Shown here: positions 1,765 through 43,276 of the stretch, piece after piece
Position numbering within the stretch: position 1 is the stretch's first letter
How the letters are laid out: each line of letters starts with the position of its first letter
Sequence record: OR525701.1
Reading direction: 5' to 3' (one strand)
From: Escherichia phage vB-Eco-KMB38
DNA: 64,000 bases
Position numbers and translations under genes: made by a program
The notes under the pieces: model-generated
Seen by the model: the letters and a program-made list of their open reading frames with translations, nothing else
Databases searched by the model: none
What the model was told of the DNA's origin: nothing

Positions 1765-2046
1765 CTATTTTTCTGAAGCGCCTGAAATATATTTTTCAAG
1801 ACGTTGTTTCATCAGCGAGCCGTTCTTAGCGATTTCTTCCGGTTTATCGCACATACGCAACAAGGCTTCAAGCTTAACGATATCACTGGTGCGCTCAAAT
1901 TTGCGAGTATCTATCTTACTAGCAAGTTCAGAAATACGTGCTAATAGACTTTCAGCTTCAACCAAAGCTGCACCTAGCTTAGTTGCAAATGTGTCAGTAG
2001 CTTCGTTAAGAATAGATTCTGATAAAAATTCACTATATGTTTTCAT
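1765..2046 (-). CDS. Internal protein (Ip-type) with capsid-targeting sequence
   Basis: Internal start gives [10 protein letters not shown]; ATG overlaps the lysozyme stop (ATGA); ORF-track start at 2061 is a TTG. Confidence 0.6.
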
Positions 2047-6655: not shown

Positions 6656-7011
6656 TTTCTACATTCCTTAATAAAGTTTTCTATTGTTTCATTTTCACGT
6701 CTAGCTAGGAGTTCATTATAACTAATCATTTGAGAAGCGTAAACCTTTTTATTTTTCTTGTTATGGTTTATAAAATCGTAGTAAAAATAGACTACAGTAC
6801 AAAAGGATGCGATGGATGCAAAGGCTTGGGTATACCGTAAGTCCTGCCATTGGTCTGTGAATCCACCAGTGTTCCCTATAAATCCTAACACAACGCCGTC
6901 AATAAGAAATCCAACTAATCCAAAGGCAAATCCCATGCCAATACTCATAATAAAAATTAGAATGTTCTCACCAAGAGAAGGCCATACGGTTAAGAGTTGA
7001 GGTTTTTGCAT
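6652..7011 (-). CDS. Hypothetical membrane protein
   Basis: Hydrophobic segments; AAGGAAAT RBS; C-terminal IENFIKECRK. Confidence 0.55.
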   Translation of the reverse strand: MQKPQLLTVWPSLGENILIFIMSIGMGFAFGLVGFLIDGVVLGFIGNTGGFTDQWQDLRYTQAFASIASFCTVVYFYYDFINHNKKNKKVYASQMISYNELLARRENETIENFIKECRK

Positions 7012-7385
7012 CTTATTTCCTTAACGAATTCCATAGCTTCTTCATATTCATACTTTTTAACAGCTTCATCATACTGAGCTTGGGCTTTTGCGCACTGAAC
7101 TTTCCACTCGCGAACTCGAGCTCTGTGATGACGGCCTTGGTGCCAATATCCTGCCCAATTAATAGGCATTAATAAAAACGGTACAATAAGTGGTGCGACG
7201 AACATTAATGAAAACGCTGCATCAGACGATATAACTTTATTGGAATCTAAAATAGCTCCTATAATCATAAAGATTAAAAATGCTAAAGCTAAAATAGGGC
7301 CAAATAGTACTTCGTTTGGGATTAATTTACGTTTGTATTCGTATGCCCATGGCTTAATTGGCATGTACAGGGTTGGCTTTGACAT
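6990..7385 (-). CDS. Hypothetical membrane protein
   Basis: ORF-track start at 7415 is TTG; first ATG gives MSKPTLYMPIK; two hydrophobic helices; C-terminal EFVKEIRCK. Confidence 0.5.
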   Translation of the reverse strand: MSKPTLYMPIKPWAYEYKRKLIPNEVLFGPILALAFLIFMIIGAILDSNKVISSDAAFSLMFVAPLIVPFLLMPINWAGYWHQGRHHRARVREWKVQCAKAQAQYDEAVKKYEYEEAMEFVKEIRCKNLNS

Positions 7386-7977
7386 ATTCTCTACATTCCA
7401 TAATAAATTGCTCAAGGATTAAATTGTTAGTGAAATTAGGACTAACAACCATAGTTTCATAAAGCGCATCAATAGCACTTAAAGCATCAACTCTTTTAAG
7501 CAAAGGCTTGCCTTCATACATAGTTTCAGAATCGACGATTAACGTAAAGTAATATTTTTTATTATCGACTAGAACTTCTGTGTCGATATAAAACATATTA
7601 GACCTCAGAAGCTTATCTCTAAAACCATAATAATCTTCTGAACGTTCGCTGATATATTCCCATTCAGTGTTTAAACAACAAACAGACCACGTAGGAGCAA
7701 CGAAATCAGTGAATCTAATATCATGGTCTGCAACTAGTTTAGCAATAGCTCCGATATCATGAATCATAATACCTGGGGCTAATAAAGATTTTCTGCTATG
7801 GCTAGCCGTTTTCTCAGTGGTCTCATAAGAAGCTGACCAGTACCATTTACGTCCGGTTGCAACATATCGTAATGAATCAACTAAAGACGTAGGTGGATTT
7901 ACCTTATCTCGGAACTCTTCGAACATCGAGTCAATATCATTATTTTGGTTTCGCATGTTAACTCCTTTATCATCCAA
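7354..7977 (-). CDS. Hypothetical protein (207 aa)
   Basis: ORF with C-terminal EQFIMECREY motif overlapping next gene start. Confidence 0.5.
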   Translation of the reverse strand: MDDKGVNMRNQNNDIDSMFEEFRDKVNPPTSLVDSLRYVATGRKWYWSASYETTEKTASHSRKSLLAPGIMIHDIGAIAKLVADHDIRFTDFVAPTWSVCCLNTEWEYISERSEDYYGFRDKLLRSNMFYIDTEVLVDNKKYYFTLIVDSETMYEGKPLLKRVDALSAIDALYETMVVSPNFTNNLILEQFIMECREYVKANPVHAN

Positions 7978-8005
7978 AAGGAGGACCGGAGTCCTCCGTA
8001 TTATT

Positions 8006-8599
8006 TTATTTCAAAGAGTTAATATATTCTTGTACATCAGCAGAAGTGGTTTCGACACCGGCTGGAGTACCATTGAACGTTTCAACACGAGTCAGAGTGT
8101 CTTCGATATCAACCTTAGTCAGTGCAGCGATTTCAATTACATCATCGGCCGTAGAGATACCAAGGGCATTGGCTGCTCGAGTTTCACGAATGTATTCGAG
8201 TTTGATTGCCAGATTCTGACGAGCATCATCAAGTTCAACCACCTTACGAGCAATTTCAATTCGCATAGCGGCATACCCGTCGGCTTTTGTATTAAGTTGT
8301 TCGGCAGTTCGACGATACAGAAGACCAAGCTTAGCATGCATGGTAACATCTTGTCCTTCGGCCAAGAGCTTACGAATTTCACGTTCCTTAGAAGCGGCTT
8401 GTTTATTCTTTTCAATAACAAGTTCGCGAATACGTTTTTCTTCATTAATAGATTTAACAGAAGCCGTTTTTAGTTCTTTGATTTGGGTAATCAACTTATC
8501 TGCAGCTGCGTTATACTGTTCTTCGACAGTCAGATTTTTAGCCATAGCAGTACCCAGTTTAGTGCGGATGAATTCAACAAGTTTCTTCAGTGTGTTCAT
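8006..8599 (-). CDS. Coiled-coil protein, possibly PspA/IM30-like
   Basis: Start at MNTLKK after AAAGG RBS (ORF-track start is 5 codons upstream); heptad-rich, charge-alternating sequence resembling PspA architecture; assignment is inference. Confidence 0.45.
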
Positions 8600-8669
8600 A
8601 TTATTACCTTTCAATTGGTGGTTTATTATCCAATGAGAGCATTATACTCTGCTCTCAAGAGTTTGTAAA

Positions 8670-9176: not shown

Positions 9177-9482
9177 TTAATTTTTCCAACTTAACAACTT
9201 GTAGTGTCCTTCATTCGTACGAGGTTTATCCCAAGAAATACTAATATATGATTCGCTATCAATAGAAGTCGCCGGGTTTTTCTCTACCGTAAGACCTTCA
9301 CTTTCCAGCCATTCAATAGTATTTGCGCATAAATCAGAAGAACACCTCATCGGGAACCGGCAAGATTTTTCACCTTTAGCTGCAGTGTTATACATCTTTT
9401 CTAGAATACGCTTTTGCACGTTTTTAAAAATAGTTTCAGCAGATTCTTCAGATTTTTTATTCAGTTCAGTATAAAGACTCAT
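9177..9482 (-). CDS. Hypothetical protein (101 aa)
   Basis: ORF with GAGGAAAATG RBS downstream of early promoter. Confidence 0.5.
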   Translation of the reverse strand: MSLYTELNKKSEESAETIFKNVQKRILEKMYNTAAKGEKSCRFPMRCSSDLCANTIEWLESEGLTVEKNPATSIDSESYISISWDKPRTNEGHYKLLSWKN

Positions 9483-9499
9483 AACATTTTCCTCTGCGG

Positions 9500-9540
9500 T
9501 TGATAAGTCTATAGTATCATGTCCTTAGAAGAAGTAAACA
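9500..9540 (-). promoter_or_regulatory. Early promoter (GTTTAC -35, TGATACTAT extended -10)
   Basis: Minus-strand sense GTTTACTTCTTCTAAGGACATGATACTATAGACTTATCAAC. Confidence 0.55.
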
Positions 9541-9570
9541 TCTTTATGAAATATTTTTATGCCCTAGATA

Positions 9571-9599
9571 CCAAAAAGCCCCAACCGTAAGGAAGGGGC
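9571..9599 (-). terminator. Rho-independent terminator (GCCCC...GGGGC hairpin plus U-run on minus strand)
   Basis: gccccaaccgtaaggaaggggc preceded on plus strand by aaaaa; lies just 3' of Ip gene 9606..10070. Confidence 0.55.
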
Positions 9600-9605
9600 A
9601 TTCTA

Positions 9606-10070
9606 TTATTTAATTTGTTTAGCAGACCAGATACGGTCTTTAATAAGTTTTTGGATATCTTCAACATACTCAAGGCTATGAGCGTGAGGATTATCTTTGA
9701 AACTATGTGCTCGTGCCAGTTTCTGGCCTTCTGTTTTGATTACTAAAAGCTCTTTAAGAATTGCTTCATACTTAGAAATAATTCCTTTGGCGATATTTTT
9801 TTCTTGAGCTGTTTTAGGGTCCGCTTTTGGCGCAGGTGCTTTACCTGTAGCTTTCTGGAACAATTCACCTGATGCAGCTAGGCTTTTAAAAACTCGGCTA
9901 ACAGTATTAGCATTAGTAAAACCTTCGGCTTTAAAATCTCTAATAAAACGGAAACGTTCTTCATCGGAGGCGTCTTTGTAAGAATATTTACCTGCTTGAA
10001 TTGCTGCAATCGCAGCGGCTTTTACATCTGAACTAGATTGTTCAGTCAAAAATTCAGCGTATGATTTCAT
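9606..10070 (-). CDS. Internal protein (Ip-type) with capsid-targeting sequence
   Basis: N-terminus MKSYAEFLTE; 154 aa. Confidence 0.55.
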   Translation of the reverse strand: MKSYAEFLTEQSSSDVKAAAIAAIQAGKYSYKDASDEERFRFIRDFKAEGFTNANTVSRVFKSLAASGELFQKATGKAPAPKADPKTAQEKNIAKGIISKYEAILKELLVIKTEGQKLARAHSFKDNPHAHSLEYVEDIQKLIKDRIWSAKQIK

Positions 10071-10113
10071 GTTGCTTTTCCTAAGTTAATTAACTTATCT
10101 ATTTATTATTATA

Positions 10114-10142
10114 CCAAAAAGCCCCAACCTTTCGGAAGGGGC
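10114..10142 (-). terminator. Rho-independent terminator
   Basis: gccccaacctttcggaaggggc with U-run on minus strand; near-copy of hairpin at 9578. Confidence 0.55.
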
Positions 10143-10194
10143 TAAGCCTTGCGGCAACCTTGTCGGGGTTCCACCTGCTAAGGCAAGTGTTTGT

Positions 10195-10286
10195 ACGAAA
10201 CGCCGGGATTCGAACCCGGTTATTAAGTAGTTGACGCTACTCAATATTTTTAAAAGGCCATATCTCGACCATATCCGAACGTTCCG
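10195..10286 (-). ncRNA. tRNA-like structured RNA (canonical T-arm and acceptor pairing, aberrant D/anticodon region)
   Basis: Minus-sense CCGGGTTCGAATCCCGG T-arm; 5' CGGAACG pairs with 3' CGTTTCG; interior does not fold as a standard cloverleaf. Confidence 0.3.
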
Positions 10287-10456
10287 TCAAAAACGCTACT
10301 CGGCTTACGGCAAAGATATTTCCTCGAATCGATAATTCTGTGCGCCGTTTCTGCTGTGAGATAAGGGACTTTAAGATGTCAACTCATGTACGCCTTAAAG
10401 TCGGGTCTTATTCAGGGAACATCAGTCCGACGACTTGCCGGTAGCGACCCGGCTTC

Positions 10457-10801
10457 TTATTTTGGCATATCATCAATTTGCTCTCGACGCCGACGCCATA
10501 GATTAATCGCTTCATTAACACATTCGGCGTTTGGTATATGACGGCAATAATATAATGATTCACGTTTCTGGAACCGATGTTGCAACGGGATTTCGTTTAA
10601 AAGGTCTTTACGGTCAAAGTATTCAAAACTAGTTAACCCAGAACGGTTTTTAATGAACTTCCAATGTCCAAATTCATTTTGAACATAGATGTAATCGGCA
10701 TGCTGATACAGCGAATTAATCAATCGATGAGAAATAACTGTATCATATTCGTTAAAATAAAACGTTAAATCATGAACTACCAGATAAACATTGCCTTTCA
10801 T
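10457..10801 (-). CDS. Hypothetical protein
   Basis: ORF-track start at 10849 would overlap tRNA-Arg; internal Met MKGNVYLVVHDL chosen. Confidence 0.45.
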   Translation of the reverse strand: MKGNVYLVVHDLTFYFNEYDTVISHRLINSLYQHADYIYVQNEFGHWKFIKNRSGLTSFEYFDRKDLLNEIPLQHRFQKRESLYYCRHIPNAECVNEAINLWRRRREQIDDMPK

Positions 10802-10819
10802 ATTTTCCTCACTTAAAGT

Positions 10820-10896
<77 letters not shown>

Positions 10897-11065: not shown

Positions 11066-11571
11066 TCAATCATTTTAACAGTTGGCAAAACGATTTCTTC
11101 TTCAATATAAGCAAATTCAACACATTCAACTACACGCAAGAAATCATAATCATAATATTCAGAAGCATGACCAAGAATACCAACGAGACCTTCTGATACT
11201 AAATATCCATTCTCACGGAACAGGTCGAATACACGCGATTCGTCTTCTTCAGATTTATTACCAAGGTCGACTTCAATATCAAAGACCTTTTTAATGAATT
11301 CTGGATAAAGCTGGTCTGAGAACAGTCCTTCAACCAAGTATTCGTAGATTAAAAGCGAGCAATCACTGAATGGTGTATTACCACAGTAACGTTCAGCTTT
11401 AGTGCTGGAATGACGACTCTTAAATTTCTTCAAAAGATATTTAAACTGTTGGAGCTCATGCTCTTCCACTTCAAACAATGTTTTGGTTTTATAGTTGTCA
11501 CCATCATTTTCATAAGTAGTGACATCAATTACGTAACCCTTAGGAATTGTACTGCCTAAACAAATATTCAT
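11056..11571 (-). CDS. Hypothetical protein (171 aa)
   Basis: ORF; acidic; no recognised family. Confidence 0.5.
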   Translation of the reverse strand: MNICLGSTIPKGYVIDVTTYENDGDNYKTKTLFEVEEHELQQFKYLLKKFKSRHSSTKAERYCGNTPFSDCSLLIYEYLVEGLFSDQLYPEFIKKVFDIEVDLGNKSEEDESRVFDLFRENGYLVSEGLVGILGHASEYYDYDFLRVVECVEFAYIEEEIVLPTVKMIDLL

Positions 11572-11575
11572 TTAC

Positions 11576-11866
11576 TCACCGTACCATATTAATGTAATTA
11601 TATTCAATGCAACGTAATTTCAAAGGATTCTTGAAAATATCATATTCAAGAGGGCCTTTTTCTGTTTCAATAAAGAAATCAAAGTTAACTGTGTTAAATT
11701 TATCATCTTCACAGAGTAATTTAACTTGCGAAGATGAACGGTCGATATAAACCTTTTCAACCTCAAAGTTAGTCAGAATACCATAGTCATTAACTAGTGC
11801 TTTAGCTGCACGTTGATCGCTTTCATATCCATTCTCGACAGATTTTACTTTAGCATAAAGAATCAT
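11576..11866 (-). CDS. Hypothetical protein (96 aa)
   Basis: ORF with start overlapping the upstream stop. Confidence 0.5.
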   Translation of the reverse strand: MILYAKVKSVENGYESDQRAAKALVNDYGILTNFEVEKVYIDRSSSQVKLLCEDDKFNTVNFDFFIETEKGPLEYDIFKNPLKLRCIEYNYINMVR

Positions 11867-12225
11867 GAGTGTTCCACCACTTCAAAGGTATGAGCATCAA
11901 CAATATGATACCAGTCAAAATTTTCTTCTGCGTTTTTATAAATTTCGCGAAGAGCCTCAACAGTTTTTCCTGTAGCAACAAGGTCGTCAATACCGCCAAG
12001 AGGATAACAGTCATATCCAGCAAACAGAAGGAAATTAATAGTTTCTGTAGGTTCTGGATGCAGAACACCGTTATCGTCTACCACTTCAAAGAAAGTGTAA
12101 GAAGGAGTACAAGTTTTAATCCAAGCCCATGCTTGAGCTGCTGAATCAAATGGTCTGCGTATCAAACGACAATCAGGGTCTTTAGAAGGATTTGCTTCAA
12201 AATCTGCATATACATGATATTTCAT
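11863..12225 (-). CDS. Hypothetical protein (120 aa)
   Basis: ORF; tight packing with neighbours. Confidence 0.5.
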   Translation of the reverse strand: MKYHVYADFEANPSKDPDCRLIRRPFDSAAQAWAWIKTCTPSYTFFEVVDDNGVLHPEPTETINFLLFAGYDCYPLGGIDDLVATGKTVEALREIYKNAEENFDWYHIVDAHTFEVVEHS

Positions 12226-12481: not shown

Positions 12482-12769
12482 TTACAGAAGAGTTTTTGCA
12501 ATAATTTTAAGCTGAGCTACAGAAATATGCTTAGCTTTAAACAGTGCAGTCTCTTCAGCCGGAGAGATAACAATAGTAGCGCCATCTTTCTTAGCAGACC
12601 ATCCATCCCCTAAGTAAACAGTACCTTTTACTTCTTCACCATCAACCAGACTAATCATTGGTTTACCCTCACGTCCTTTATTTGTTTTAATAACTTCAGA
12701 AGTAAGGGATGCTTCGGTCAGAGTAGAAACGTTAGCAACAGGTGATATAAATTCTTTATAGGTTTTCAT
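12482..12769 (-). CDS. Internal protein (Ip-type), at the ipI position upstream of 57B
   Basis: N-terminus MKTYKEFIS...TLTE; 95 aa; synteny with T4 ipI. Confidence 0.6.
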   Translation of the reverse strand: MKTYKEFISPVANVSTLTEASLTSEVIKTNKGREGKPMISLVDGEEVKGTVYLGDGWSAKKDGATIVISPAEETALFKAKHISVAQLKIIAKTLL

Positions 12770-41364: not shown

Positions 41365-41789
41365 TGTATCTTATCCCTGAATCTTATGAATTGGTACTCG
41401 AAAATGTCGAAGCACTTATTCCTGAAGCACAGGGCCGAATCGATGCATTGTCTTCTGCTCTCGATATTGACGATATAAATACTATTATCGAGAACATGCT
41501 TGAAACTGAAACGGATTTAGCTGTTGCAATGGCTTCCATTATTAATGAAGAACAGTTAAATGAGTTTATCGTTAAACATGTTTCTTCTCGTGGTGAAGTC
41601 ACCCGCACTAAAGACCGTAAAACTCGCGAACGTAACGCGTTCCAAACCACTGGTCTTTCTAAAGCAAAACGTAGACAAATCGCTCGTAAGGTCGTTAAAG
41701 CTAAAAAAGCTAACCCTTCAGGCCAAGTTAAAGGCTTGCGTAAGCGTAAAAAGGCTCTTAAACGTCGTAAAGCATTAGGATTAAGCTAA
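41364..41789 (+). CDS. 68: Prohead core protein gp68
   Basis: 141 aa, basic C-terminus. Confidence 0.8.
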
Positions 41790-42430
41790 TGAATAAACCC
41801 GAGTTACTTATTGAAACTTGGGGTCAACCCGGTGAGATTATTGATGGCGTTCCAATGTTGGAATCTCATGATGGAAAAGATTCTGGCTTAAAACCAGGGC
41901 TTTATATAGAAGGTATTTTTCTTCAGGCAGAGGTTGTTAACCGAAATAAACGTTTATATCCTAAACGCGTTTTGGAAAAAGCAGTAAGTGACTATATTAA
42001 AGAACAAGTCGCAACCAAACAAGCCCTTGGAGAATTAAACCATCCACCTCGTGCAAATGTTGACCCTATGCAAGCCGCTATCATTATTGAAGATATGTGG
42101 TGGAAAGGAAACGATGTATATGGACGTGCTAGAATTATTGAAGGCGACCATGGTCCCGGCGATAAATTAGCTGCTAATATACGAGCTGGCTGGATTCCAG
42201 GTGTTTCCTCTCGTGGTCTTGGTTCTTTAACCGACACCAATAAAGGGTACCGTATCGTGAACGAAGGATTTAAATTAACCGTCGGCGTAGATGCCGTATG
42301 GGGACCTTCTGCTCCAGATGCTTGGGTTACTCCTAAACAAATATCAGAATCAGAAAATTCGGTGGAAACCACCAAAAACAGTGCTGATGAAGCATTTAAA
42401 GCTCTCGCAGAGAGTTTAAAAGCATTATAA
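41789..42430 (+). CDS. 21: Prohead core protease
   Basis: 213 aa; synteny. Confidence 0.9.
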   Translation: MNKPELLIETWGQPGEIIDGVPMLESHDGKDSGLKPGLYIEGIFLQAEVVNRNKRLYPKRVLEKAVSDYIKEQVATKQALGELNHPPRANVDPMQAAIIIEDMWWKGNDVYGRARIIEGDHGPGDKLAANIRAGWIPGVSSRGLGSLTDTNKGYRIVNEGFKLTVGVDAVWGPSAPDAWVTPKQISESENSVETTKNSADEAFKALAESLKAL

Positions 42431-42463: not shown

Positions 42464-43276
42464 ATGATCAAAGAACAACTTTTGAAAGAAGCTCAGAATA
42501 TCGAGACTTCAGTTGCTCTTAATAGTGTTTTCGAATCAGTAGAACTGTCTCCGGACGTTAAAGCTAATTTCAGCACTGTATTCGAAGCCACCGTTAAGCA
42601 GGAAGCAGTCAAACTGGCTGAATCTCATATTAAAGCCATCGCCGAAAAAGCCGAAGAAGAAGTTGAAAAGGCTAAAGAAGATGCTGAAGAGAAAGCTGAT
42701 AAAAAATTGGCTGAACAAGCTTCTAAATTCCTAGACCATCTTGCAAAAGAATGGCTCGCAGAAAACCAAATCGCAGTTGATAAAGGCATTAAAGCTGATT
42801 TGTTCGAATCCATGCTTGGTGGTCTGAAAGAACTGTTTGTTGAACATAACGTTGTTGTTCCAGAAGAATCTGTAGATGTTGTAGCAGAAATGGAAGAAGA
42901 GCTGGCCGAACATAAAGAAGAAACCGCTCGTTTGTTCGAAGAAGTTGCCAAACGTGATGCATATATCAATTACGTTCAGCGTGAAACCGCTATTAATGAA
43001 AGCGTAAAAGACCTGACTGAATCTCAGAAAGAAAAAGTTATTGGCCTGGTTGAAGGTATGGATTATTCTGACGCATTTGGTACTAAGTTAACTGCTATTG
43101 TAGAAATGGTTAAAGGTTCTACTAAAGAAGAAGCCGCTATTACCGAAAGTATAAATACAGTTGACAATGACGCTGCCGGTCTTAATTTTGTTGCCGAAGC
43201 AGTTGACACTACCACAACTCAGGTAGAACAGAATTCTAATGTAAGTTTATATGCGAAAGTCGCATCTCGTTTCTAA
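42464..43276 (+). CDS. 22: Prohead core scaffold protein
   Basis: 270 aa, highly acidic helical. Confidence 0.9.
   Translation: MIKEQLLKEAQNIETSVALNSVFESVELSPDVKANFSTVFEATVKQEAVKLAESHIKAIAEKAEEEVEKAKEDAEEKADKKLAEQASKFLDHLAKEWLAENQIAVDKGIKADLFESMLGGLKELFVEHNVVVPEESVDVVAEMEEELAEHKEETARLFEEVAKRDAYINYVQRETAINESVKDLTESQKEKVIGLVEGMDYSDAFGTKLTAIVEMVKGSTKEEAAITESINTVDNDAAGLNFVAEAVDTTTTQVEQNSNVSLYAKVASRF

Follow-up and report, generated by a model that had tools for sequence, protein, structure and literature searches.

The internal proteins (Ips) of the T-even phages, namely IPI, IPII and IPIII of T4 and Ip4-Ip9 of other T-even phages, are small, basic and non-essential proteins whose presence varies between close relatives. 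Those of T4 have in common only a capsid-targeting sequence (CTS) of ~10 residues at the N-terminus; in the whole class this signal carries an L/I-x-E site for the prohead protease gp21, and past it the proteins show no similarity. Mutational work on IPIII indicates that residues 4 and 7 control targeting, that residues 8 and 10 control processing, and that gp21 cuts after L/I-x-E. The genes differ by locus, with ipI placed between 57B and tRNA.4 and ipII, ipIII and Ip4 between vs.8 and e. A second described system, the PeSL and PmSL cassettes (PMC2839356, PMC4122927), consists of single non-essential open reading frames (ORFs) in hyperplastic regions, surrounded by GC-rich GGGG/CCCC stem-loop terminators that insulate them transcriptionally and at which, in close relatives, the junctions of insertions and deletions (indels) fall. 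Here we describe a locus that resembles both, in a stretch of 64,000 nt from Escherichia phage vB-Eco-KMB38 (OR525701.1), hereafter the window, to which all positions refer unless stated otherwise. The ORF at 9606-10070, which we call ipA, had been read in a first-pass annotation as an additional Ip-type gene, starting MKSYAEFLTE and bracketed by twin terminators. The ORF and its start are as that annotation had them, on the minus strand, which it did not state, and we put at about 65% the probability that ipA encodes a T4-type internal (injected) head protein in a cassette site delimited by terminators; the site, immediately after rnaC, is a third locus.

That ipA is a real gene in a polymorphic cassette is almost certain. 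Its ortholog in phage RB32, ORF133c (YP_803075.1), occupies the same site with about 75% amino-acid identity, and the two differ by 64 synonymous and 46 non-synonymous changes, giving a ratio of non-synonymous to synonymous rates (dN/dS) of 0.09 overall, of 0.03 in the C-terminal third (the C-domain) and of 0.13-0.26 in the N-domain, where the allele classes are deeply diverged and dS is saturated. The ORF is under purifying selection (dN/dS 0.03-0.26), and this ratio rules out a chance open frame. A tblastn search found ipA in 511 phage records, ~70 of them at 95% identity or more (Mosigvirus type) and ~400 at 60-80% (Tequatrovirus type).

The assignment to the Ips begins with the N-terminus, which has Y4, F7, L8 and E10, the first two identical to IPIII, and in which L8-T9-E10 matches the gp21 cleavage motif and is the predicted site. 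To place this resemblance in context, every Met followed by at least 60 codons in the window (n = 438) was scored against MKTYQEFIAE over its 10 positions. The score was 4 or less for 431 of the 438, starts outside the Ip type reached at most 5/10, and six reached 6 or more, MKSYAEFLTE among them with 6/10. All six are the N-termini of minus-strand ORFs (293-622, 648-962, 1026-1286, 1765-2046, 9606-10070 and 12482-12769). Only one of the other five belongs to a recognised family, the ORF at 12482-12769, which is a bona fide ipI (PF11634, E 2.6e-49). The product of 1765-2046 (minus strand) is 92% identical to RB69ORF127c and 48% identical to Ip5 of RB32. Judged by these CTS-like starts, the window would encode six Ip-type proteins.

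In pairwise BLAST the similarity of the ipA product to T4 IPI, IPII and IPIII, to RB32 Ip4, Ip5, Ip7 and Ip9 and to the RB69 Ips is limited to the first ~12 residues, which is normal for Ips, as the known ones are likewise related among themselves only over an N-terminus of CTS length. Unlike the T4-type Ips, ipA belongs to a paralogous family of its own, comprising ipA, a second gene that we call ipB, and relatives in Karamvirus and Klebsiella phages. An exhaustive hidden Markov model (HMM) search of 1.8 billion representatives returned about 10 proteins, mostly short and with CTS-like starts, which tblastn places in T4-like phages. These more distant relatives and those from Klebsiella and Karamvirus phages, at 26-48% overall identity, keep an aromatic residue at position 4, a hydrophobic one at 7, L, I or V at 8 and mostly E at 10 (MLKFNEFLAE, MLEYSEFLKE, MITFNDILAE, MLNFKEFITE). 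Because these positions are kept at so low an identity, their retention argues for selection on the signal itself. The gene is also as variable in its presence as a non-essential Ip gene would be: T4, PST, RB7 and others lack it, RB32, RB18, RB68 and the Mosigvirus group carry it, and frameshifted alleles of genes at the cassette site exist. Together with the basic character of the product (isoelectric point 9.5) and the late-promoter motif described below, these features support the Ip-type assignment of the first-pass annotation, and the product is probably packaged and processed.

One could instead take the CTS-like start as vestigial or coincidental and the product as a cytoplasmic late protein tied to the adjacent stable RNAs and tRNAs, for example an RNA-binding one. 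The gene does lie directly downstream of rnaC in Tequatrovirus and Mosigvirus, and at the same post-tRNA site in Karamvirus, and its packaging is a prediction; moreover, residues 37-76 weakly resemble one PPR-type helical repeat, the family profile matching an 869-aa PPR/TPR-like repeat protein (P0017) over six tandem repeats at E 2e-4. We do not trust this protein, the sole non-phage match, as a homolog, since the resemblance is weak and probably that of a single helical hairpin. T4 keeps rnaC and rnaD without the gene, a terminator and an apparent late promoter of its own set ipA apart from the RNA operon, and the N-terminal motif is the best-conserved feature across the diverged relatives, which is hard to explain without selection on targeting and processing. 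A cytoplasmic role thus seems highly doubtful, and we retain the internal protein.

The signals upstream of the gene are consistent with a virion protein. The T-run of the upstream hairpin is directly followed by GGTATAATAATAAATAG, which holds the late-promoter-like box AATAAATA, and the alleles of Tequatrovirus and of two further loci of our comparison (L007 and L009) have a perfect TATAAATA at the same position; in RB69-type phages position -13 is usually A or T (Nolan et al.). One or the other version, TATAAATA or AATAAATA, stands directly after the terminator in 10/10 homologous ipA loci, in a spacer that is itself just 60-65% identical, and the Karamvirus homolog has the same layout of terminator and TATAAATA; at the Klebsiella-phage locus CATAAATA lies farther upstream, ahead of a small intervening ORF. 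A TATAAT that overlaps the late box has no acceptable -35 element. In five T4-like genomes Nolan et al. found late promoters only upstream of orthologs of T4 late genes, novel ORFs being generally early; a novel ORF with a putative late promoter would be an exception to this pattern, and one that fits a virion protein.

The near-identical hairpins that the first-pass annotation saw on either side of the gene are present (Table 1). They agree at 19/22 positions, with every difference in the tetraloop, and are part of a longer direct repeat of 32 nt (9568-9599 and 10111-10142; 29/32 or 91% identical, 543 nt apart) that includes the T-run and 'GGTAT'. In the whole 64 kb, a search for the hairpin pattern that allowed up to 3 mismatches returned these two matches only; 100 shuffles gave an expectation of 0. 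Taken along the coding (minus) strand, either copy has the sequence GCCCCUUCC-loop-GGUUGGGGC and then UUUUUGGUAU, and because a GC stem-loop is thus followed by a T-run, both copies are, from their sequence, terminator-shaped for leftward transcription. Their folding energies are -16.7 and -17.3 kcal/mol, and each stem is interrupted by a 2x2 U.U internal loop, to which we attribute both their moderate stability, the versions in T4 and RB32 having perfect 10-bp stems at -23 kcal/mol, and the fact that a simple terminator scan flagged neither of them. In GenBank annotations of near-identical phages the hairpins are called terminators, as the downstream one is by ARNOLD in the KAW3E185 record, and TransTerm gives confidence 100 both to the RB69 homolog of the upstream hairpin (74086-74107 in RB69) and to a different hairpin downstream of the gene that RB69 has at this site. 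The downstream hairpin together with the early promoter that follows it is, by its sequence, a probable PeSL-type unit of terminator and early promoter, and the two hairpins are apparent boundaries, one between an early/middle RNA operon and a late gene, the other between that gene and an early ORFan block.

The states of the site in related phages give the clearest view of the cassette. In T4 the gene is absent, and rnaC is followed by one hairpin (GCCCCGACCGAAAGGTTGGGGCTTTTTGGTATCTAAGCC...) and then by the e.8 promoter; PST has the same empty site. RB32 has rnaC, a hairpin, TATAAATA, ORF133c, a second hairpin, and then GGTATCTAGGCC... and e.8, so that its locus is that of T4 with one cassette and a further copy of the repeat added, the empty site of T4 and PST holding exactly one repeat copy with identical junctions. 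The annotators of RB32 had already noted that ORF133c is 'flanked by 34 bp imperfect direct repeat' and list its product as a hypothetical protein, not an Ip; ORF133c further differs from ipA of the window in its perfect TATAAATA and perfect hairpin stems and in being followed by e.8 instead of the ORFan block. The empty site of T4 was used to query Tequatrovirus records, of which a spread sample with full coverage divided into 6 contiguous (empty) sites and 24 split ones (occupied, about 555 bp larger). Other occupants exist as well. At the RB69 site there is a different gene with a CTS (MKTYAEFLTEAAKLP...), frameshift-split into ORF149c and ORF148c (11429-11991 of our RB69 locus, L004, minus strand), the intact 187-aa form of which is ipB, found in 165 phage records. 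The two genes are homologous over their full length (hhalign probability 97.7%, E 1.6e-12), as distant paralogs bridged by the Karamvirus protein, and they stand in tandem as ipA-hairpin-ipB at three loci (L005, from phiE142, L010 and L011). At L007 and L009, ipA is followed by a different short hairpin, an unrelated ORF of 184-219 aa and the usual hairpin. This third cassette (about 1904-2573 of those loci) lies between a short GCCCCGTCTGGGGC hairpin and the usual one, and in L009 its ORF starts with a hydrophobic stretch (MKLLKYLSWVLLVPLDF...); at 1971-2110 of a further locus, L006, both hairpins remain and the third-cassette ORF is gone.

Other phages have this cassette too: the conserved cassette site after rnaC exists in several states, of which this is one, with 0, 1 or 2 paralogous genes of putative Ip type. 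The first-pass annotation had called for a synteny comparison and would have given up its reading had the cassette been universal and conserved in sequence in T4-like phages and its product absent from virions; the precise empty site with one hairpin in T4 and PST and the 6 empty against 24 occupied sites of the sample show presence/absence polymorphism instead. On sequence evidence its Ip-type gene, its twin terminators and its insulated single-gene cassette are all supported. Insertion is, however, no likelier a reading than loss from T4, since several genera have the site occupied.

Comparison of the window with RB32 shows how abruptly identity changes along the locus. It stands at 93-100% over rnaC and drops at the upstream T-run to 47-72%, a level that lasts over the 5' two-thirds of the ORF; the 3' third is at 75-90%, and immediately past the downstream hairpin there is no more homology. 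The same divergent island appears between phiE142 (Mosigvirus) and a Tequatrovirus contig, the adjacent ipB being 92-100% identical at the DNA level. In KAW3E185 both hairpins are identical, including a TTAC loop, and the upstream copy of the window has a GAAA loop; both copies in Mosigvirus have the U.U variant, which T4 and RB32 lack. Because the copies change in concert in these two respects, gene conversion between them is suggested by their sequences.

Similar behaviour has been described for PeSLs, GGGG/CCCC stem-loop cassettes that recombine into minicircles and cause indels of the same kind, in a paper that also notes a need of <50 bp of homology for T4 recombination (Arbiol 2010, PMC2839356); the findings were later extended to T-even phages and linked to the older polymorphism of the ipI locus (Comeau 2014, PMC4122927). 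The present locus agrees with PeSLs in having a GC-rich, terminator-capable stem-loop on both sides of an ORF, and in that hairpins stand at the junctions of all its states (empty, single, paralog and tandem) and coincide with the identity breakpoints. It departs from them in its promoters. An early sigma70-like promoter follows the downstream copy only, where it would drive the next gene and resembles the T-even PeSL early-promoter consensus TTTACW..TAYWAT (Comeau 2014, PMC4122927), as in PeSLs; the upstream copy is coupled to a late-promoter box, whereas the PeSL and PmSL papers describe early- and middle-promoter versions, and the phrase 'late promoter' is absent from the text of Arbiol 2010 (PMC2839356). 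The repeated unit, moreover, is a hairpin plus T-run without a promoter, unlike a PeSL.

It might be argued that the hairpins are terminators only, whose likeness is the residue of a single ancient duplication, with no active part in gain, loss or exchange. Both copies stand where terminators are needed, some loci have an unrelated downstream hairpin, many viral contigs with no relation to these phages have hairpins of the same shape, and recombination is inferred here from comparing sequences, no product having been observed. Indeed, a scan of IMG/VR for the hairpin pattern gave at least 80 loci, and since many lie in unrelated contigs the pattern alone is unspecific, only pairs ~535-560 bp apart being informative. 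Against this stand the single repeat copy with identical junctions at the empty site of T4 and PST, the same hairpin between stacked cassettes, the coincidence of breakpoints with hairpins, the concerted changes of the two copies in KAW3E185 and in Mosigvirus, and the experimental recombination of GGGG/CCCC PeSL stem-loops of the same type into minicircles (PMC2839356). We therefore regard a purely terminating role as unlikely, and favour hairpins that would both terminate and recombine.

A bolder extension is that the region following rnaC may serve specifically as an array of cassettes for injected proteins, delimited by hairpins, in which the conserved terminator hairpin is the exchange site, loosely like an integron attC. 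Under this proposal, co-infecting T-even phages of different genera would trade Ip genes that are ready to express and equipped with late promoters, the exchange could be assisted by phage nucleases that act on cruciforms or hairpins or by double-strand breaks from SegB, the homing endonuclease encoded nearby, and ipA and ipB would make up an Ip superfamily not recognised before, with target specificity set by the variable N-domain. We offer it as speculation that is rather unlikely to hold in full.

The AlphaFold2 model of the ipA product, of moderate quality (pLDDT 75, shallow alignment), predicts a disordered CTS (residues 1-10), a confident three-helix N-domain (13-67), a disordered linker (72-84) and an antiparallel helical hairpin (85-151). 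The two-domain, all-helical layout of the model differs from the compact alpha/beta fold of T4 IPI*. The linker is rich in K, A and P (PAPKADPK) and in the Karamvirus homolog is drawn out to ~45 residues with repeats of AKP type; it fits the finding that, in T4 heads, lysines of internal proteins are in contact with the phosphates of the DNA. Structural and sequence searches gave no functional lead: no Pfam family was assigned to the ORF, its family in PHROG is of unknown function, and searches of Pfam, PADLOC and PDB sequences gave nothing meaningful, the matches being a GemA fragment (E 0.07) and an Old Yellow Enzyme (E 0.003, over the low-complexity linker).

What is known of other CTS proteins offers an analogy. 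Ip1, Ip2 and Ip3 are inhibitors of GmrSD type IV enzymes, each with a target of its own, and a fourth CTS protein, Bas37_0260, inhibits McrBC (HIDEN-SEQ preprint, 10.1101/2025.11.20.689424). The latter resembles ipA in being an accessory gene of a polymorphic Ip locus, recognised solely by the N-terminal signal that it has in common with IPI-III, to which it bears no further relation; it differs in being another protein, at the ipI site, with a function shown genetically, ipA being known from its sequence. By this analogy the ipA product may be an anti-defence effector, for which we would give slightly less than even odds.

Several observations weigh against our reading of this locus. In all ~130 matches listed, of the 511 phage records, ipA is labelled 'hypothetical protein', the sole 'internal virion protein' family whose profile it matches, phrog_7857, does so weakly (E 0.008) and at the N-terminus only, and literature searches with the ORF names and for Mosigvirus virion proteomics returned nothing on the gene, which the SegB/Septu paper does not mention either. 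WATAAATA is frequent in AT-rich DNA, at roughly one per 4 kb per strand by our own estimate, so that the promoter call rests on its conserved position and not on the motif. The hairpins fold only modestly better than shuffled sequences (z-scores of just -1.6 and -1.7), and at some homologous loci (L006, L007, L009 and RB69) the downstream hairpin differs, so that the twin repeat is not obligatory. Lastly, an internal L-K-E (residues 105-107) is a possible second gp21 site, cleavage at which would fragment the protein, and the very strong conservation of the C-domain is not what a typical interface in an arms race would show.

The last two points would also suit a product that is packaged but dispensable, a DNA-associated or core structural protein without an anti-defence role, such as a histone-like charge neutraliser or condenser or a core component cut into peptides by gp21. 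A basic, lysine-rich protein with a disordered K/A/P linker that is expanded in Karamvirus, together with the contacts of Ip lysines to DNA phosphates, points the same way, and a dN/dS of 0.03 in the C-terminal domain is easier to reconcile with a housekeeping interaction than with an arms race. The gene is, however, wholly absent from T4, PST, RB7 and others, so that any structural role must be dispensable; the N-domain exists in deeply diverged allele classes; and all CTS proteins of known function are restriction inhibitors. We find the structural explanation improbable.

In the mechanism that we favour for the internal protein, the late promoter directly after the terminator of the tRNA/rnaD/rnaC unit would drive the gene, residues 1-10 would bring the protein into the scaffolding core of the prohead, and gp21 would cut after Glu10. 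The mature form so predicted, a lysine-rich product of 144 aa and about 16 kDa, would remain with the packaged DNA and be injected into the next host, where it might most likely disarm an early-acting defence, a type IV restriction enzyme being the leading guess by analogy with the characterised CTS proteins. The hairpins would have two jobs. As terminators they would keep three transcription units apart (the operon of early/middle RNAs, the Ip gene with its late promoter and the block of early ORFans), and as a 32-nt direct repeat they would offer short homology for recombination of the T4 type, which could allow loss of the gene (as at the T4 empty site), its regain, its swap and the stacking of paralogs.

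Both the Ip class and the cassette architecture were already known, and current understanding is not overturned by this locus, which adds a widespread and overlooked example. Its interest lies in the fact that all CTS-bearing T-even proteins of known function (Ip1, Ip2, Ip3 and Bas37_0260) are specific inhibitors of type IV restriction, with targets matched only in 2025, and that ipA and ipB, present in 511 and 165 sequenced phages respectively, are 'hypothetical' in all listed matches. They were probably overlooked because this third Ip locus is absent from T4. Hence ipA is a testable candidate for a phage counter-defence protein, with carriers among the BASEL phages and the RB collection and with T4 as a natural empty site with its hairpin, and the locus provides a natural series of 0, 1 and 2 cassettes that bears on modular exchange driven by terminator repeats.

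Table 1. Positions of the features discussed, in the 64,000-nt window of Escherichia phage vB-Eco-KMB38
Feature	Position	Strand	Remarks
ipA-type gene	9606..10070	-	ATG start; 154-aa pre-protein; PHROG 2280; N-terminus MKSYAEFLTEQSSS
CTS-like propeptide MKSYAEFLTE	10041..10070	-	Codons 1-10; predicted gp21 cleavage after E10 (L-T-E/Q)
Shine-Dalgarno AGGAA	10078..10082	-	Read from sequence
Late-promoter-like box AATAAATA	10100..10107	-	30 nt upstream of ATG
Upstream hairpin GCCCCAACCTTTCGGAAGGGGC	10121..10142	-	T-run 10116-10120; left repeat copy (10111-10142); putative terminator of tRNA-Met/tRNA-Arg-ORF-rnaD-rnaC unit
Downstream hairpin GCCCCAACCGTAAGGAAGGGGC	9578..9599	-	T-run 9573-9577; right repeat copy (9568-9599); predicted to end the gene's transcript
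Early-type promoter of next gene (ORF 9177..9482)	9511..9539	-	GTTTAC-N17-TACTAT, TG upstream of -10 box
A7 homopolymer run	9796..9802	-	Inside gene, codons E90-K91-N92
rnaC homolog (T4 species 1 RNA)	10194..10332	-	Placed by eye against T4 (6909-7047 of locus L002), approximate; 3' trailer enters upstream hairpin
gp21 prohead protease	41789..42430	+	PF03420, E 2.8e-107; expected to process the CTS
gp22 scaffold protein	42464-43276		PF25623, E 2.2e-89

The window is from a Mosigvirus, an RB69-like T-even phage. The 901 bases around the gene (9400-10300) are 100% identical to Escherichia phages PTK (MW512264) and AlbertHofmann (MZ501047) and 98-99% identical to many further genomes of Mosigvirus, the RB69 group of T-even phages. 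On the minus strand the order is 57B, ipI, the homologs of tRNA.4, tRNA.3 and tRNA.2, tRNA-Met, tRNA-Arg, a small ORF, the homologs of rnaD and rnaC, ipA and a block of small early ORFs. Besides gp21 and gp22, the portal gp20 and the capsid proteins gp23 and gp24 are also encoded in the window.

Homologs of rnaD and rnaC, the stable species 2 and species 1 RNAs, lie at about 10194-10460 (minus strand), the rnaC homolog being 93-100% identical to that of RB32; an Rfam scan of 5-16 kb found two tRNAs only, the rnaC and rnaD homologs (E<=1) and the hairpins matching no family. The small ORF beside them, at 10457-10849 (minus strand), is listed by the program with a TTG start and 130 aa, overlapping the 3' end of tRNA-Arg (10820-10896). 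Its likely start is an ATG, giving a protein of 114 aa (MKGNVYLVV...) that is RB69ORF150c-like (PHROG 3355), and its stop codon adjoins the start of the rnaD homolog.

Variant forms of ipA occur in other phages. In three protein clusters (P0007, P0008 and P0009) a frameshift truncates the product right at the A7 run (...AQEKISPKELFLSMKQFLKSF), which could reflect pseudogenisation, sequencing error or slippage. A metagenomic protein of 94 aa (P0010) is a chimera whose N-terminal part resembles a tRNA.3-like protein (11863-12225 in the window) and whose last 31 residues are the ipA C-terminus, implying a deletion of the tRNA/rnaC region in some phage.

Used as a query, the T4 rnaC-e.8 intergenic segment (6640-6960 of L002) matched 1815 places in 695 records, about 2.6 per genome; part of it, probably the stretch ahead of e.8 with the early promoter, is therefore a dispersed T-even repeat, a behaviour expected of PeSL-type elements. 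Elsewhere in the window, the 28-nt gap between the e.5-like (7354-7977) and e.6-like (8006-8614) ORFs contains a perfect palindromic hairpin at 7980-7997, GGAGGACCGGAGTCCTCC, which has T-runs on both strands and hence the shape of a terminator in both directions, and whose homolog is annotated as a terminator in the KAW3E185 record.

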